A DNA stretch of 64,000 bases, from positions 673,701-737,700 of the forward strand of contig JBFIJM010000001.1 in the NCBI GenBank assembly GCA_041600715.1, read 5' to 3'. The position numbers and the translations under genes were made by a program. Source of the DNA: Candidatus Saccharimonadales bacterium (GTDB lineage: Bacteria > Patescibacteriota > Saccharimonadia > Saccharimonadales > 2-12-FULL-41-12). The notes under the pieces are model-generated. The model worked only from the letters and a program-made list of their open reading frames with translations. It searched no databases and was not told the origin of the DNA. Positions 3,633 to 60,496 of this stretch are shown piece after piece; the first letter of the stretch is position 1, and every line of letters starts with the position of its first letter.

Positions 3633-3663
3633 TTCGCCTAGTCCTTTAGGAGGAATACATACC

Positions 3664-4773
3664 ATGGCAGAAGACCAAAAAGATCTATTACAAGCTAAAG
3701 ACGCACTTGTTGCTAAAGCAAAAAAAGATAAGAAGATTGATCAAGAGTTGATCTTCGCATCAATCCCTGAGAAGCCAGAAAACACAGAGATCCTAGACGC
3801 GCTATACTCGGAGCTAGCAGAGGCAAAGATTGTGGTGTCCACACCAGGTGTTGCAAAACCAGGGGTAGATTTTAGCGATGAATGGGCCGAAGAAGAAGAG
3901 GATGAAGAAGTTATTCTTGACGATAAAGCCTACATGGACGATATCGCTGACGATTCGGTCAGACTGTACTTGCGCGAAATTGGTAAGATCCCACTACTAA
4001 AAGCTGACGAAGAGTTGGCATTGGCTCACCGAGTAGTAGCAGGTGAGAAAGAAGCTAAGGATCAAATGGCAGAAGCCAACATGCGTCTAGTCGTGTCGAT
4101 TGCAAAACGTTATGTTGGTCGAGGCCTAGACTTACTAGATCTTATCCAAGAAGGAAACACTGGCTTGCTACGAGCGGTAGAGAAATTTGATCCTGATAAG
4201 GGATTTAAGTTCTCGACATATGCCACTTGGTGGATTCGTCAGGCGATCACTCGAGCGATCGCTGATCAAGCTCGTGTCATTAGAATTCCTGTCCATATGT
4301 TCGAGACCATCAACAAATTATTACGTACACAACGACGCCTAACTCAGGAGCTTAATAGGGAGCCGACAAACGAAGAGATTGCCAAAGCAATGGAAATGGA
4401 AGTCGAGAAAGTCGAGCATATAATGAAGATTAAGCAGGATATACATTCGCTTGATGCTAGTGTGCGCGACGATGAAGAAGATTCTGTGCTGGGTGATTTT
4501 ATCGAAGATGAAGATACGGTAAGTCCAGAAGAATCTGCTACCACGCAACTGCTAAAAGAGCATGTAAAAGATATGCTGGCTGGTCTTACAGAACGCGAGC
4601 AGAAAATACTTAAACTGCGCTTTGGCCTAGAAGACGGTAAAAGCCATACCCTAGAAGAGGTGGGGCAAGAGTTTAGCGTTACCCGAGAACGTATTAGGCA
4701 GATAGAAGCTAAAGCGCTTGCTAAACTTCGCAAGCACAAAGACGCTCGTAAACTCCACGACTATCTTAAGTAA
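3664..4773 (+). CDS. rpoD: RNA polymerase sigma-70 factor
   Basis: Region 2 ([36 protein letters not shown]) and region 4 ([24 protein letters not shown]) are present. A GGAGG RBS lies upstream. Confidence 0.95.
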
Positions 4774-5338
4774 TCTGATCTATAATCTTATCTAGCTTTG
4801 CAATCAGATCAGTTTGTTCACCGTCATTTACGATAGTGTAATCTGCGTATGCGATTGGTCCGCCCTTTTCTATATTCTCAATCTCTGCAACTTCTCTAGT
4901 AATAAGTTCTTGTAGGGTGTATTTACGGTGACTGTCCTTACGATCTAAAACTCGTTTTCGTCGGATGGCTTTAGGCGCGCAGGTTGCAATCACAACTAAC
5001 TTTGCTCCAAATAGCTTTTCTAGGTATTTATACTCGCTCCAGCTATAAAGGCCGTCTAGCACCACAACGTTGTGTCCTTTATCGAAGTACCCTTGTGTCT
5101 TTCTGCCAACATGTTTAGCTAATACAGCTTTACCTTCCTGTTTGCGCATATCTTCTCTGACGAAGACTTCATCTTTTACATTGTCTAGCCCACGACGTTG
5201 AACTTCTTCGTATACCATATTGCCAAAATGAATTACTGACCAATTATACTTTTTCTGAAGATAGTCAGTGCACGTACCTTTACCACTACCTGGCATGCCC
5301 ACAAATGCAATAACAGTATTTTTACTCATAAAGATCAT
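4766..5338 (-). CDS. P-loop nucleotide kinase-like protein (UPF0200 / dNMP-kinase-like)
   Basis: Walker A motif GMPGSGKGT near the N-terminus and a size of about 190 aa. The layout resembles small archaeal-type UPF0200 kinases. The substrate is unknown. Confidence 0.55.
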
Positions 5339-10789: not shown

Positions 10790-10916
10790 AGAGGATAGTA
10801 TAGGGTTTTTTATTTAATTAGTCTTTAACTTCTTGCAACCAAGAAGCAAGTTCTATACTTTTTGTATCAGCAAAAAGTATAGGCAAAAACTGACAGGCAG
10901 TTACTAAAAACACTAT

Positions 10917-11017
10917 TGAAATGTGTTTATACACTCCATCAGTTCTTGCGGAACTCCTTATCAGTCGGCCCTAAAGGGCTGTCCTCAGAACATTAGGGAG
11001 TGTATAAACACATTTCA
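10917..11017. repeat. 101-bp element with perfect 21-bp terminal inverted repeats
   Basis: TGAAATGTGTTTATACACTCC (10917-10937) is the exact reverse complement of 10997-11017. The 59-nt interior can form two small hairpins (AGTTC-TTGCG-GAACT and CGGCCC-TAAA-GGGCTG). Confidence 0.8.
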
Positions 11018-11219
11018 TCGGTTTTAGTAAAGCCTGGGAATAAGCGGATTTCATCGTTAGTAGTCTAAAAATCTTAGATTTTCAGAATTAAAAGATCACA
11101 GCAAGCGAATGATCCTTTATGGACCACTAAGACGACTAAAACATGAGCGACTGATTAATCCGAGGACTAGCCTGAAAGGCCGACCGAAGCTAAATGCTTC
11201 TATCAAAACAATCCTAACC

Positions 11220-11249
11220 TTGACGCATAAGTAATATTTGTGCTATAAT
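11220..11249 (+). promoter_or_regulatory. sigma-70-type promoter (TTGACG-N18-TGCTATAAT)
   Basis: The -35 element TTGACG is at 11220-11225 and the extended -10 TGCTATAAT is at 11241-11249, 9 nt before the ATG at 11259. Confidence 0.65.
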
Positions 11250-16590: not shown

Positions 16591-17325
16591 GTGAATACGC
16601 TTGATGGAATTCTTCTAATCGACAAACCGAAAGGCTGGTCTTCTTTTGATGTTGTTGGCAAGGTCCGCGGGGTACTCCGTACCGAAATTAGGAAACAGAA
16701 ATTAGGAAACAGTGAAGCCCAGTTAATTACTAATTCCAAATTACTAATTCCTAAAGTTAAGGTGGGGCATACCGGAACACTTGATCCACTTGCTACTGGC
16801 CTAATGATTGTTGTTGTTGGGAGCTACTGTAAGCGTGCTAGCGAGTTTTCTAATCTTAGTAAGGTCTACGATGTCACCATGAAACTAGGCGAGACAAGCA
16901 CGACTGGAGACGAAGAAGGCCTAAAGCAAAAGGTAGCAAGCACTAAACCAAGCAAAATAGAGGTTGTTACGGCACTAGATAGTTTTCTTGGCGAGACCAT
17001 GCAGACACCACCAATCTACTCGGCTATTAAAATAGATGGGAAAAGAGCATACAAATTAGCTCGTGAGGGCAAGGAAGTTGTCATCAAACCCCGTAAAGTC
17101 TCCATTAAAAGTTTAGAATTAACAGAGTATAAATATCCGTATGTAAGGTTTATGGCAGATGTAGGGAGTGGTACGTATATTCGGAGTCTAGTAGAAGATA
17201 TAGGGAAGTATCTAGAAACCGGTGCTTACATGAGCGATCTAAGACGTATGTCAGTAGGTGCTTATGAAGTTGGCGACGCTCGTTCCCCAGAGTCCGTAAC
17301 TGCGAGCGACATAGTGTTACTATAG
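16591..17325 (+). CDS. truB: tRNA pseudouridine(55) synthase
   Basis: GILLIDKPKGWSSFDVV and the catalytic GHTGTLDPLATGLMIV are present. The start codon is GTG. An insertion of about 25 aa lies between the two motifs. Confidence 0.9.
   Translation: MNTLDGILLIDKPKGWSSFDVVGKVRGVLRTEIRKQKLGNSEAQLITNSKLLIPKVKVGHTGTLDPLATGLMIVVVGSYCKRASEFSNLSKVYDVTMKLGETSTTGDEEGLKQKVASTKPSKIEVVTALDSFLGETMQTPPIYSAIKIDGKRAYKLAREGKEVVIKPRKVSIKSLELTEYKYPYVRFMADVGSGTYIRSLVEDIGKYLETGAYMSDLRRMSVGAYEVGDARSPESVTASDIVLL
16684..16751. repeat. two tandem duplications in inverted arrangement inside truB
   Basis: GAAATTAGGAAACA occurs twice in tandem (16684-16711). (A)AATTACTAATTCC occurs twice in tandem (16725-16751). The two repeat units are imperfect reverse complements of each other. 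Confidence 0.8.
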
Positions 17326-30838: not shown

Positions 30839-30945
30839 ATTAGGAATAAAGAAGCGGAAATTAGTAATTTGTTTGCCAGTAGTAAAAGCAAAGATGTTGG
30901 GATTTTCTTTTTCAATCACGAGCCACTAAACAGAGAGGATTATAA

Positions 30946-57435: not shown

Positions 57436-58455
57436 ATGAATTATCCAATACAGTACAAAAAAAGTCAGTCAGACCAACAAGGTTTTGTGGCGATCATAGT
57501 AACGGTGACTCTGATGCTGGTTATGACACTAATAGTCTTGGCAATGTCACAAAATTCTAACAGAGAACAACGACAATCGCTGGATCGCCAGCTAAGCGAT
57601 CAAGCATTCTACAATGCTGAGTCGGGTATTAATGATATTTCTAGTTATTTGTATGCTAATCCAGGATCAGATATAGATAACGAAGGCGATTGTACTGTAG
57701 CAGGATTAGACCCTAATATAGATGGCCCAGATGGTGTTAATAAATACTCTTGCATTACCTATAATAAGGCTCCTAAGACATTGGTGTATGACGAGCTGTC
57801 TGTGTCAGCTCCAAAGGTATTCCCGGTTAGAGGCGCAGATTCCGCGGGTAATCCTGTAGCTATAGGGTCACTTACGATAAGTTGGGACGATTCTACTGAC
57901 CGAGATGTCATAATAAATGATGCCCAATGTAATGCCTCTACTCTCTCGACTACCTGTAGTTACGGTGGCGTTAGATTACAACTTATTCGTTCTTTAACTA
58001 GTAGAGATCTAATTAGAAACTCGGCATTCATTGCATATTTACTGCCTAGTACGTCCGGAGATACAGAAATTATTGCAGGACCAAAGCAGGGTGAACTAAA
58101 GGCAGTTAACTGTAGTTCAGCAATTAATAACCGGAGATGCTCTATAACAGTAAGAGGGCTTAACGAGAATAATCTGTATGCAACTATTCAGTCGCTTTAT
58201 AGACCAACCAACGTTACGATATCTGCTACAGACTCTGCAGGGACTAAACTTCGATTAAAAGATGCACAGATAATGATAGACTCAACCGGAAAGGCAAACG
58301 ACATACTTCGACGCATTAGAGTGACTGTACCGGCCTCGGCCCAGTATGATCATCCAGGATTTGGATTGCAGTCCAAAGAGTCTTTGTGTAAGCTCCTAGT
58401 TGTTAAAGAGGGGCAAGTTAGAAACGAAGACCCTGCTGAATGCCCAATTGATTAG
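57436..58455 (+). CDS. PilX-like pilus protein (pilin-like N-terminus lacking Glu+5)
   Basis: The processing site reads ...SQSDQQG / FVAIIVTVTLMLVMTLIVLAMS. This shares the SDQQGF leader with the preceding gene, but position +5 is Ile. Confidence 0.55.
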   Translation: MNYPIQYKKSQSDQQGFVAIIVTVTLMLVMTLIVLAMSQNSNREQRQSLDRQLSDQAFYNAESGINDISSYLYANPGSDIDNEGDCTVAGLDPNIDGPDGVNKYSCITYNKAPKTLVYDELSVSAPKVFPVRGADSAGNPVAIGSLTISWDDSTDRDVIINDAQCNASTLSTTCSYGGVRLQLIRSLTSRDLIRNSAFIAYLLPSTSGDTEIIAGPKQGELKAVNCSSAINNRRCSITVRGLNENNLYATIQSLYRPTNVTISATDSAGTKLRLKDAQIMIDSTGKANDILRRIRVTVPASAQYDHPGFGLQSKESLCKLLVVKEGQVRNEDPAECPID

Positions 58456-59393
58456 TCTGTTTTTCTGTGGAACTTTTCGTGAATTTTCTTTAGGTGTGGA
58501 TCTGTAACGTGGGTATATATTTGGGTTGTAGCAATATTGCTATGACCAAGCATTGCCTGAACAGAGCGAAGGTCTGCTCCGTTCATTAGCAGATCTGTCG
58601 CAAAGCTATGCCGTAGTGTATGAGGGCTTACATGTTTTGTTATGCCAGCAAGTAGTGCATATTTAGCGACCATTCGCTGAACACTACGTGGTGTAAGACG
58701 TAGATAGTTGCCAGAGAAGTCTGGTTTCTTGTGTCCACCAATCCTCACAAAAAGAGCAGGGGATGCGTCTTTCCTCTGTTGGATATACTGCTCGATCCAG
58801 TCGGCAGATTGATCGCTAATAAAGACCGGACGATCTTTTTGTCCTTTACCTCGTACCATAAATTCTTTGCGCTTTAGGTTGATATGATCTTTGTTGAGAC
58901 CACACAATTCTGATACACGCAGACCACTAGAATATAGTAATTCTAAAATTGCGCGATCACGTAGTCCGGCAATGGTCGAAGTATCCGGCTCGTCAAATAA
59001 GCGATGTAATTCTTCTGGACTCAAGAATGTCACTTGGATACGCTTGGTACGCGCCAGTTCGACTTTCTCTGGGCTCATAGCAGTTATGTCGCGTTTTGCG
59101 CAGTATTTAAGGAAACTGCGGAGAGCGATTAAGTGATAATTTTGTGTGCTTTTTTGGAGTTCGTCACTAGTGTTAGTGCCGAGACGATTTAACCATAGTC
59201 TCCATTTGCGGATAAGCTCTGGTGTGATGTCGGTTACTTTAATATCGCCAGCATAGTCTACTAACCTAGTAAGGTAGTGGTGGTAGTTTGCAATGGTTTT
59301 TTGTGATCTGTTTTGCTCGATTTCTAGATACTCCAGAAAATCGACAATCAAGCCTTGTAAGTGCATACGTTTATTGTAGCCCACCCGTTCCAT
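58452..59393 (-). CDS. tyrosine site-specific recombinase (XerC/XerD family)
   Basis: SAM-like N-terminal domain. Catalytic residues lie in ARDRAILELLYSSGLRVSEL, HTLRHSFATDLL and LGHSNIATTQIYTHV. The 3' end overlaps the last pilus gene by 4 nt. Confidence 0.85.
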   Translation of the reverse strand: MERVGYNKRMHLQGLIVDFLEYLEIEQNRSQKTIANYHHYLTRLVDYAGDIKVTDITPELIRKWRLWLNRLGTNTSDELQKSTQNYHLIALRSFLKYCAKRDITAMSPEKVELARTKRIQVTFLSPEELHRLFDEPDTSTIAGLRDRAILELLYSSGLRVSELCGLNKDHINLKRKEFMVRGKGQKDRPVFISDQSADWIEQYIQQRKDASPALFVRIGGHKKPDFSGNYLRLTPRSVQRMVAKYALLAGITKHVSPHTLRHSFATDLLMNGADLRSVQAMLGHSNIATTQIYTHVTDPHLKKIHEKFHRKTD

Positions 59394-59404
59394 TTATACA
59401 CCAC

Positions 59405-59430
59405 CTATCACAAAACTCTCACGATCGTAA
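59405..59430. repeat. left copy of a perfect 26-bp inverted repeat
   Basis: CTATCACAAAACTCTCACGATCGTAA lies in the 48-bp gap between the 157-aa gene and the recombinase start codon. Confidence 0.9.
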
Positions 59431-59441
59431 CAAATGTGTGA

Positions 59442-59915
59442 CTATATTCTTCGACACTCAAAGAGTTGAACATATGATTCAAGACAGTATTGCTCTATCT
59501 CCGCTTTCAGTAATTTCTTATGATCATAATCTGTTGCCCAGACGCTCTTTTGGATCTGTCTAAATGACAACTCTTGCAAGAGTGAGCGCAAGTGATCTCG
59601 TTTTTTTCGTTCAGACTCTGGAATATCAAAGACAACCATCAGGCTGGCTCCTGGTAGTTTTTTAGCAGAGAAGGGTGCAACTTTTCGCATGCCTTTAGAG
59701 GTAAGACGCGCATTACCAAAATCATCATATTCTATGAGCCCAGCTTTTACTGATCTATAGAAAGCGTTTCTCGCTGTATTTTGTTTTATATTGTCGATAC
59801 GATCAAGGTCTGCGAAAAACCGAGAGGGTAAAAATACAAGCTTCAAATTCTGCTCGGTGTATGGGATAAGCGATAGTAATACGTAGTGCGTAGCAGACAT
59901 CGATTTTTTACTCAT
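59442..59915 (-). CDS. putative regulator (N-terminal wHTH-like region plus PaaX/Cas2-like ferredoxin-fold C-terminal region)
   Basis: The C-terminal pattern ASLMVVFDIPESERKKRDHLRSLLQELSFRQIQKSVWA resembles the PaaX C-terminal / Cas2-like motif (vvyDIpe..rk.R..lr..L...Gf..lq.SVw). The assignment is tentative. Confidence 0.45.
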   Translation of the reverse strand: MSKKSMSATHYVLLSLIPYTEQNLKLVFLPSRFFADLDRIDNIKQNTARNAFYRSVKAGLIEYDDFGNARLTSKGMRKVAPFSAKKLPGASLMVVFDIPESERKKRDHLRSLLQELSFRQIQKSVWATDYDHKKLLKAEIEQYCLESYVQLFECRRI

Positions 59916-59938
59916 ACTTTCAATCTATCACAAATGAC

Positions 59939-59964
59939 TTACGATCGTGAGAGTTTTGTGATAG
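59939..59964. repeat. right copy of a perfect 26-bp inverted repeat
   Basis: TTACGATCGTGAGAGTTTTGTGATAG is the exact reverse complement of 59405-59430. It is embedded in the palindrome ATCTATCACAAA-N20-TTTGTGATAGAT (59923-59966). Confidence 0.9.
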
Positions 59965-60031
59965 ATTATGCGAGTGTAATCGGTGTCTGTATCTGTTATA
60001 ATTATTGTATTCAGATAAGCAAGGAACCAAA

Positions 60032-60496
60032 ATGGAACGAACATTAATTATCCTCAAACCCGATGCTGTGCAACGTGGACTTGTTGGCGAGATATCCTCA
60101 AGATTGGAAAATAAAGGCTTGAAGTTAATTGGAGCTAAGATGATGAGATTAGACAGTGCATTGTTAAGGGCTCATTACGCACACATCGTCGACAAGCCAT
60201 TTTATAAAGGTATAGAAGATTTTATGCAGAGCTCGCCGGTAGTTGTCATGGCTTGGCAAGGGTATGAGTGTGTTGATTCTGTACGAAAGCTTGTTGGGGC
60301 TACCAATCCTCGCTTAGCTGATGCTGGTACAATTCGTGGCGACTTGGCTATCGGTCAGGGCAGGAACCTTATACACGCATCTGATAGTAAAGAGAACGGC
60401 GAAGAAGAAATCGCCCGGTTCTTTGATGATGGCGAGGTCTTTGATTACGATAAATCAGAGTACGAACAGGTTTACGAACCCTACGAACGGTCATAG
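60032..60496 (+). CDS. ndk: nucleoside diphosphate kinase
   Basis: MERTLIILKPDAVQRGLVGEI and NLIHASDS (active-site His). I chose the ATG at 60032, which has an AAGGAA RBS. TGTTATAAT is at 59994-60002. The ORF-track start at 60005 is a TTG. Confidence 0.95.
   Translation: MERTLIILKPDAVQRGLVGEISSRLENKGLKLIGAKMMRLDSALLRAHYAHIVDKPFYKGIEDFMQSSPVVVMAWQGYECVDSVRKLVGATNPRLADAGTIRGDLAIGQGRNLIHASDSKENGEEEIARFFDDGEVFDYDKSEYEQVYEPYERS

Follow-up and report, generated by a model that had tools for sequence, protein, structure and literature searches.

In the genome of a Candidatus Saccharimonadales bacterium, a short gene is enclosed between the two copies of an exact inverted repeat of 26 base pairs (bp), beside a tyrosine recombinase gene and a pilus gene. 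We analysed this locus within a stretch of 64,000 nucleotides (nt), hereafter called the window (positions 673,701 to 737,700 of contig JBFIJM010000001.1, assembly GCA_041600715.1), and compared it with related loci in other genomes. The enclosed gene encodes a protein of 157 amino acids (aa), which we call mini-PaaX because its end coincides with the point where the ligand-sensing C-terminal domain of PaaX would start. Each repeat copy belongs to a palindromic site, U upstream or D downstream of this gene, and the features of the locus are:

57436-58455, plus strand: pilus gene with a PilX_N match (Pfam).
58452-59393, minus strand: Xer-type tyrosine recombinase, open reading frame (ORF) of 313 aa, matching Pfam Phage_integrase and the NCBIfam Xer models.
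59403-59446, no strand: site D, on the recombinase side, second copy of the palindrome, core CGATCG at 59422-59427.
59442-59915, minus strand: mini-PaaX gene, 157 aa, with a winged helix (residues ~8-79) and a Cas2-like beta-alpha-beta-beta-alpha-beta domain (residues 91-154).
59923-59966, no strand: site U, on the ndk side, 44-bp near-palindrome with 18/22 symmetric positions, core CGATCG at 59942-59947.
60032-60496, plus strand, divergent from the mini-PaaX gene: ndk, with an NDK Pfam match.
60580, plus strand: tRNA-Arg.

A first-pass annotation, made from the letters of the window, had described a perfect inverted repeat around a small regulator-like gene at the end of a pilus locus, and this description holds. 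The copy at 59405-59430 (CTATCACAAAACTCTCACGATCGTAA) is the exact reverse complement of 59939-59964, the two copies enclose the entire 157-aa ORF, with the full 44-bp left site overlapping its stop, and domain searches confirm the recombinase and the PilX_N gene beside them. A repeat search over the window lengthens the pair to 37 nt at 89% complementarity (59405-59441 / 59928-59964) and finds the 59405/59928 pair to be the closest-spaced strong inverted pair of the 64 kb; it also recovers the palindrome CTATCACAAA-N20-TTTGTGATAG (59925-59964) in which the right copy had been placed. Each copy is in fact a near-palindrome of ~44 bp with the centre CGATCG. The dyad of U lies 30 nt 5' of the mini-PaaX ATG and that of D 17 nt beyond the stop codon, which is overlapped by the gene-proximal arm of D, and the distal halves of U and D are identical. 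In the whole window ACGATCGT is found at the two repeat copies only, a palindrome scan returned no further site resembling U or D, and CGATCG gave no signal of avoidance or of a link with restriction sites (12 occurrences against 10.6 expected). The 26-bp inverted repeat is thus a pair of ~40-bp palindromic sites around the gene for a small DNA-binding protein, which is most likely the protein that binds them.

The 157-aa protein is a truncated PaaX-type regulator, composed of a winged helix and a Cas2-like domain, without the ligand domain. Residues 93-155 match PaaX_M (PF20803; E-value 1.1e-16, 61.1 bits against a cut-off of 24, Pfam), an annotation that homologues of the protein already carry in precomputed form, and Cas2 models also match the protein, both in Pfam (PF09827, E-value 3.8e-6, 27.4 bits against 23.8) and in NCBIfam (cas2 TIGR01573, 29.6 bits against a cut-off of 24.5). 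The N-terminal PaaX domain gives no Pfam match by sequence in this protein. An AlphaFold2 model built from 40 homologues, with a mean pLDDT (predicted local distance difference test) of 88.6, has the winged-helix and Cas2-like folds, the N-terminal elements being helices at 8-57, a beta hairpin at 61-71 and a helix at 73-79. The top Foldseek matches are E. coli PaaX (8a39) and M. tuberculosis Rv0674 (3kfw), each spanning both domains, followed by many Cas2 chains. PaaX_C is absent from the protein, which stops at residue 157 directly after the Cas2-like domain, and PF08223 (PaaX_C) is carried by distant relatives only, for example P0098.

Homologues of mini-PaaX come almost all from Saccharibacteria and other Patescibacteria; a profile search among 1.84 billion representatives found 83 clusters at E <= 1e-30 and 1859 at E <= 1e-10, counted at 50% identity. 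The motif FDIPE, including D97, is invariant in the family, the Asp aligned with the catalytic Asp of Cas2 is retained, and R103 and D107, in helix alpha1 (PESERKKRDHLR), are candidate specificity residues. Searches against PHROG gave no matches, and those of PADLOC were restricted to the Cas2 part, in respect of any phage or defence affiliation. A public protein identical to the ORF (P0001) is annotated from M6 onward, with 152 aa; across the family, the distances of operator and -10 element from the start favour the upstream ATG at 59915, which gives 157 aa.

Eighty genome loci encoding homologues were fetched, and matching sequences were sought just before the start and just after the stop of each gene; a gene was counted as bracketed when the two copies had at least 24/44 identical positions, and 191 other genes of the same loci served as controls. 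Paired palindromes bracket 69 of the 74 homologous genes in these loci, with a median identity between copies of 33/44, and none of the 191 control genes reaches 24/44. The result was replicated in independent metagenome contigs, where 55 of 66 complete genes are bracketed, so the layout, whose conservation in related loci the first-pass annotation had proposed to check, is present in well over 100 genes of the ultra-small Patescibacteria. The sites are palindromes of 30-45 bp with the centre CGATCG or CGGCCG, rarely TGATCA or CAATTG; their outer arms vary among loci, agree between the two copies of one locus and co-cluster with the protein clades. At least 13 genomes have 2-4 paralogues, each with an arm sequence of its own, the paralogues of one genome being ~50% identical. 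An Xer homologue lies within 4 kb in only 10 of the 80 genome loci: the repeat tracks the mini-PaaX gene, not the recombinase. In 775 kb of DNA flanking the related genes, hardly any site was found other than the bracketing ones.

The geometry of the sites is also conserved, with the dyad of U mostly 28-31 nt before the ATG and that of D mostly 17-25 nt after the stop. Their symmetry is bipartite, reaching 73-100% at positions +/-1-5, falling to 56-63% in an AT-rich spacer and rising again to 72-85% at 13-18 from the dyad, a pattern that fits a central module flanked by two winged helices, with about three helical turns between them. Within a locus, the four half-sites are about equally alike (on average 10.2-11.7 of 16 positions), the promoter-constrained proximal half of U being slightly the most divergent. 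Inverted alignment of the two copies is the better one in 20 loci and direct alignment in 12, with no difference in 37; an obligatory inverted relation of the copies is rejected by these counts and by the equivalence of the half-sites. The perfect inverted repeat of the window arises because its two gene-distal halves happen to be identical; it is a by-product of two identical half-sites, and a recombination process is not needed to explain it.

A few loci depart from the two-site layout. L068 is the sole locus with a clear third copy of the palindrome (2872-2915, 3642-3679 and 4462-4503), and its extra interval holds an opposite-strand ORF of 150 aa whose N-terminus looks, by eye, like a LexA-type winged helix; this ORF is possibly a second gene under the same regulator. 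In L003 an extra palindrome lies just after ndk (5224-5257), with the same core and inner arms as the cassette (GGA-CGGCCG-TCA) and unrelated outer arms; this may represent a partial site or have arisen by chance. An identical cassette with identical flanks is found on two contigs (L039 and L040) of one metagenome-assembled genome, which reflects either an assembly duplicate or a recent duplication.

The relation between protein and site was examined by computing the mutual information between each column of the protein alignment and each position of the half-site. Residue 107 (D107 in the window), located in helix alpha1 within the motif P-E-x-E-R-x-K-R-[107]-x-L-R, covaries with bases -4 to -7 beside the core with z of 17-19, against at most 11 for any other residue-base pair; residue 103, one turn off on the same helix face, joins it in the larger data set. 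The correspondence is as follows, the hyphen before CG marking the border of the core:

Residue 107 Asp: pyrimidine-A-CG beside the core (window TCA-CGATCG-TGA).
Residue 107 Arg or Lys: (G)TC-CG or CC-CG, that is NC-CG.
Residue 107 Asn, Gly, Ser, Thr or His: GA-CG or AA-CG, that is RA-CG.

This rule is correct in 84 of 93 loci, whereas the site class of the nearest phylogenetic neighbour is correct in 43 of 93; in the 47 cases where the nearest neighbour has a residue of another class, the site matches the gene's own residue in 39. Within the clade of xer-adjacent proteins alone, residue 107 is D in the window, T in L003, G in L001 and L002, R in L047 and H in L017, and the site changes each time. 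Such repeated and joint switching of site and residue is the signature of direct base contact. The success of residue 107 in predicting the bases, far above that of phylogeny, is strong, if indirect, evidence that the protein reads the sites. A contact by residue 107 would place the Cas2-like dimer on the dyad. Two further observations concern the same helix: Gln at 107 follows no single rule, CC-CG, GA-CG, TC-CG and TG-CG sites all being seen, and the rare cores other than CGRYCG (TGATCA, CAATTG, GCCGGC) accompany altered alpha1 motifs, for example PQSHD..RR.

Site U is located over what appears to be the promoter of the gene. In most loci its gene-proximal arm contains a -10 element of the form TGnTAnnnT ending 5-9 nt before the ATG; of the 49 loci with standard spacing, 41 show this -10 and 25 include the TG, the corresponding proportions for control ORFs being 20% and 5%. 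The -10-like hexamers which the first-pass annotation had named before the regulator-like gene and the recombinase are present, and the family comparison favours other elements for both genes. The predicted -10 elements of the locus are:

59373-59378, minus strand: recombinase -10, TACAAT, 6 nt 5' of the ATG of M10 and outside site D.
59922-59930, minus strand: mini-PaaX extended -10, TG-a-TAGATT (TG-n-TAGATT in general form), within the arm of U nearest the gene, ending 6 nt 5' of the start codon at 59915.
59994-60002, plus strand: ndk extended -10 (TGTTATAAT), read from the sequence.

The distance between -10 and ATG in the window points to a leaderless mRNA and to a U operator covering -51 to -8, so that binding would exclude RNA polymerase in the way PaaX does at its Px promoter. 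Autorepression of mini-PaaX is well supported by this layout and by analogy with PaaX, and remains what we infer from them.

We consider that the two repeat copies are operators for the mini-PaaX protein encoded between them, with a probability of roughly 0.75 given the comparative sequence evidence. A dimer would lie along each ~40-bp palindrome, with its winged helices on the outer arms (TATCACAAA / TTTGTGATA), 13-18 bp from the dyad, and with the two alpha1 helices of its Cas2-like domain reading the centre; the invariant R106 and R110 would contact the CG steps, and residues 103 and 107 would read bases -4 to -7, D107 going with TCA-CGATCG-TGA in the window. As the U operator would overlie the gene's own extended -10, the bound protein would shut the mini-PaaX gene off, as E. 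coli PaaX does at Px. The D operator, the weakest step of this scheme, would most likely be an auxiliary operator looping to U, or a roadblock or terminator insulating the cassette. The Xer recombinase would be a conserved neighbour in one clade, neither the creator nor the user of the repeat. The first-pass annotation had offered, as one of three readings, paired operators through which the small protein controls both itself and the recombinase: its first half is sustained by the PaaX-type protein, by sites that travel with the gene, by a residue that predicts the site and by the position of U over the promoter, while control of the recombinase is not shown.

The position of D relative to the neighbouring genes gives some indication of its nature. 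It is present with the next gene co-directional (37 loci) or convergent (28 loci), at a very variable distance, and the candidate general rule that D is the promoter or operator of the next gene was rejected on the 28 convergent neighbours and the variable distances. Being independent of orientation, variable in distance and rarely endowed with promoter elements, D belongs to the cassette and does not, as a rule, serve as operator for the adjacent gene. The DNA outside both sites is strongly strand-skewed over 60-90 nt throughout the family (L001-L173), and its instance in the window is:

59967-60031, plus strand: C-poor flank outside U, read outward; its mirror flank lies at ~59366-59402, minus strand.

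On the coding strand the G content upstream of U is 0.08-0.12 and that of C 0.25-0.31, and downstream of D these become 0.28-0.30 for G and 0.07-0.11 for C; the two flanks are therefore mirror images, C-poor and G/T-rich when read outward, C-rich and G-poor when read inward. This skew is independent of the orientation of the neighbours and absent from control intergenic DNA. Of 240 flanks, 33 contain two-tetrad runs resembling G-quadruplexes, compared with 4 for the opposite strand. It is a matter of speculation that inward transcripts would meet a region resembling a Rho-loading site, which would fit an insulated cassette.

Several points weigh against the operator reading. The case for it is entirely comparative. 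The covariation of the outer arms with residues of the winged helix is weak (z ~6-11) and could reflect subfamily structure. Promoter elements are rare at D (6/69, against 26/69 for U), and the skew of the flanks is not accounted for by simple autorepression. The public M6 start, if correct, would widen the distance between -10 and start codon. Finally, a repressor without a ligand domain and with no target detected beyond its own gene has no obvious physiological purpose, which hints at a missing piece.

The orientation of the cassette was compared among about ten syntenic genomes. The order pilX-xer-cassette-ndk with the cassette oriented as in the window is found in the window itself and in L001, L002, L006, L007, L047 and L171; the cassette alone is reversed in two other syntenic genomes, L003 and L017. 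The flipped loci keep their flanks, that is the arrangement site-G-rich-TACAAT-N6-ATG for xer and the TATCTGTTATAAT promoter for ndk, so the breakpoints fall at the palindromes. The xer-adjacent proteins form one clade, L006 excepted, and within it L017 and L047 have sister proteins and shared arm sequence in opposite orientation. The cassette has therefore been inverted between its palindromes on one or two evolutionary occasions at the least; a flipped allele of the window would read ...TTTATACACCAC-CTATCACAAAACTCTCACGATCGTAA-GTCATTTGTGATAGATTGAAAGTATG.... A check of repeat orientation in related loci, which the first-pass annotation had suggested, hence yields both orientations between species and leaves a programmed switch unsupported. 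Within a species, P0073, a different member of the family, has one orientation in 24 of 24 contigs; the exact protein of the window, P0001, is absent from the contig index, and a metagenome scan found no relative closer than 55% identity. In L048 xer adjoins ndk with no cassette between them, and a mini-PaaX cassette lies 1.5 kb further on, past a gene of 409 aa. The spacer of this locus (1168-1431) contains an ORF of 87 aa that by eye resembles a GIY-YIG nuclease; L048 was considered as an empty site and rejected, since the ndk-xer spacer is this unrelated ORF and holds no solo palindrome.

It might be supposed that the adjacent Xer recombines the palindromes and flips the ~520-bp cassette as an on/off or phase switch, a programmed inverton of the kind the first-pass annotation had envisaged next to the pilus genes. 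The perfect 26-bp match of the inverted copies, their palindromic core and the opposite cassettes of L003 and L017, with breakpoints at the palindromes and a sister pair (L017/L047) in opposite orientation, speak for such a switch. We nevertheless regard it as improbable: the repeat follows the mini-PaaX gene, and Xer is missing from the surrounding 4 kb in 70 of the 80 genome loci; 20 loci have inverted copies but 12 have direct ones, and in another 37 neither relation fits better; the inner arms beside the core differ among the cassettes of one genome, so that a single Xer could not recognise them; the recombinase scores as a housekeeping XerC/D/A and not as an invertase; and the 24 contigs with P0073 have a single orientation. 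A flip would moreover change little, both sites being equivalent palindromes, and would leave the reading into the pilus genes as it was, because xer lies between them and the cassette. The other proposal of the first-pass annotation, a long-range RNA duplex and processing site, belongs to an explanation in which the palindromes act on one transcript as hairpins or as such a duplex (a 5' structure with a 3' terminator or stabiliser, or a processing site), and it is the least probable of those considered here. Each site can be folded into a long hairpin, D comes directly after the stop, preceded by an A-rich and followed by a T/G-rich tract, and G.T mismatches outnumber A.C mismatches on the sense strand of D (98 against 49). 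The G.T excess is, however, mirrored by an A.C excess in U and explained by the strand skew that extends 70-90 nt beyond the sites; the inferred promoter inside U would fire at the ATG, which leaves U off the mRNA; no Rfam match was obtained; and the protein residue predicts the site sequence. A symmetry of 56-63% in the spacer is not tolerable for a stem, and a full RNA hairpin was rejected on this bipartite symmetry. D could still act as a terminator besides binding the protein.

The third alternative takes the cassette for a selfish or mobile unit, whose palindromes would be terminal repeats and whose Cas2-like domain would cut the CGATCG core for excision, inversion or insertion. We judge it as doubtful as the inverton. 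The unit is self-contained, with sites at its two ends only and several paralogous cassettes per genome, its flanks are skewed in mirror symmetry whatever the neighbours, it is flipped in L003 and L017 and placed elsewhere relative to xer in L048, and FDIPE, D97 included, is invariant. Invariance of this kind need not imply catalysis, since FDIPE...R...R...Q.S.W is just as invariant in a full-length PaaX-like protein. Paralogues ~50% identical and of different specificities speak against recent transposition, the xer-adjacent cassettes form one clade in conserved synteny, as expected of vertical descent, no pair of empty and filled sites was found, and PHROG had no match while PADLOC covers the Cas2 part only. 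Marginally less unlikely, although still given a small chance, is a speculative variant in which the cassettes are autonomous DNA-address modules: each paralogue would bind only the two ends of its own gene through a programmable Cas2-fold reader, and the skewed flanks and the retained Asp at the Cas2 catalytic position would reflect an activity on DNA (for example nicking or cutting of the CGATCG/CGGCCG core, or polar blockage of transcription or replication), with an occasional flip or relocation as in L003, L017 and L048. What lends such a reading its small probability is the skew of the flanks, together with the oddity of a repressor that lacks both a ligand domain and targets detected beyond its own gene. 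If true, Patescibacteria would harbour a self-contained genetic element of a new kind.

As regards the neighbouring genes, the recombinase obtains NCBIfam bit scores of 256.6 for XerD, 255.5 for XerC and 243.4 for XerA, against 42-45 for tyrosine invertase, where the cut-offs are ~221; it is conserved at 75-85% identity across the syntenic loci and has no invertase signature. Its homologues align from residue 11 onward, and its true start is probably M10 (ATG 59366-59364) rather than 59393. The TACAAT found 6 nt before M10 suggests a leaderless xer mRNA, and the same layout (site-G-rich-TACAAT-N6/7-ATG) precedes xer also in L001, L002, L007 and L017; site D, ~59 nt upstream of this likely start, is outside the core promoter of the recombinase. 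On the other side, the TATCTGTTATAAT motif precedes ndk both in the window and in L003 (4575-4590), despite the flipped cassette of the latter, and the location of this promoter outside site U gives ndk a promoter of its own. Elsewhere in the window, a long imperfect hairpin (10917-11017; arms of 36 nt, 81% complementary, loop of 29 nt) lies in a gene-free stretch of ~450 nt (10790-11238); it matches nothing in Rfam and is possibly a structured RNA that has escaped annotation. The motif TTAGGAATTAGTAATTTG(CAAAG) is repeated in inverted and direct copies at 1781-1827, 16706-16754 and 30842-30871 and may be a shared regulatory site of another factor.

To our knowledge, Patescibacteria have tiny genomes with very few recognisable regulators, and almost nothing is known of their transcriptional control. 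The locus exposes a large family with many paralogues, each member of which has a private palindromic site on both sides of its gene, and it provides a testable recognition rule, in which a residue of the Cas2-fold helix specifies the bases beside the CG core. These data suggest that PaaX-type proteins read DNA sequence with their Cas2-like domain, beyond its role in dimerisation, and they offer a set of naturally orthogonal repressor/operator pairs; they also remove a false lead, the repeat being no evidence for a pilus phase switch. No description of the mini-PaaX family or of its architecture was found in the searchable literature, and neither an operator pair that brackets its own regulator gene nor a recognition code of the Cas2 fold seems to have been described before. 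Mini-PaaX is not a CRISPR Cas2, nor is its locus a Fim-type inverton or an Xer/dif site.

The closest known system is PaaX itself. The E. coli PaaX operator is TGATTC-N27-GAATCA, and the protein represses its own Px promoter by excluding RNA polymerase (PMC9493321). Like PaaX of E. coli W and Pseudomonas (PDB 8A39, 3L09), mini-PaaX has a winged helix followed by a Cas2-like dimerisation domain, and its predicted half-sites are inverted, TATCAC-N28-GTGATA over a TGnTAGATT -10 in the window against N27 in E. coli, ~39-40 bp overall. It differs in lacking PaaX_C, the phenylacetyl-CoA-sensing domain (157 aa against ~305-316 aa), and in having no paa genes nearby, its neighbours (ndk, xer, pilus genes, tRNA-Arg) varying across loci; on these two grounds it is a truncated variant and not a PaaX orthologue. 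Further differences are that the CG-rich centre of its operator is conserved and apparently read by the Cas2-like domain, that the gene stands between two operators, that one genome encodes several orthogonal paralogues, and that in the searches made the family is restricted to Patescibacteria. With Cas2 and VapD mini-PaaX shares a ferredoxin-like fold, with a hydrophobic-D ending beta1, a basic alpha1 and Q.SV[FW]. In Cas1-Cas2 complexes the Cas2 dimer lies on duplex DNA via basic residues near alpha1. Unlike Cas2, which is a stand-alone protein of ~90-100 aa, the domain of mini-PaaX is fused to a winged helix and appears to read base sequence beyond the backbone; neither a CRISPR array nor cas1 is present in the 64-kb window, and no cas genes were seen among the listed neighbours of L081-L090 and L171-L173.

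Tyrosine-recombinase invertons, such as fimS with FimB/FimE and the promoter invertons of Bacteroides, resemble the locus in their inverted repeats beside a recombinase and surface-appendage genes and in a segment present in both orientations among related genomes. The 40-bp palindromes belong here, by contrast, to the family of the enclosed gene and not to the recombinase, which is Xer-type, the segment is a whole gene with its promoter, and orientation is uniform where it could be examined (the 24 P0073 contigs). LacI (O1/O2), GalR (OE/OI) and DeoR combine a primary operator on the promoter with an auxiliary one that repeats its sequence some hundreds of bp downstream, and act by DNA looping. 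Mini-PaaX likewise has a putative promoter operator and a second copy a few hundred bp downstream, with the difference that this copy lies, in nearly every member, just beyond the regulator's own stop. In the pdif modules of Acinetobacter a short gene cassette is located between inverted palindromic recombination sites, with Xer encoded in the genome, and the mini-PaaX gene is similarly a short cassette between two inverted site-like palindromes in a genome with Xer. The mini-PaaX sites are longer, however (~40-44 bp, against 28 bp for pdif and ~28-31 bp for dif, where recombinase-binding arms surround a 6-8-bp centre and one sequence serves wherever a given Xer acts), and the bases flanking the core differ within a single isolate, 0813_bin17 (L004, L008, L015, L024), where they follow residue 107. 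Arms that vary within one genome and covary with the enclosed protein point to that protein, and not to Xer, as the binder of the sites.

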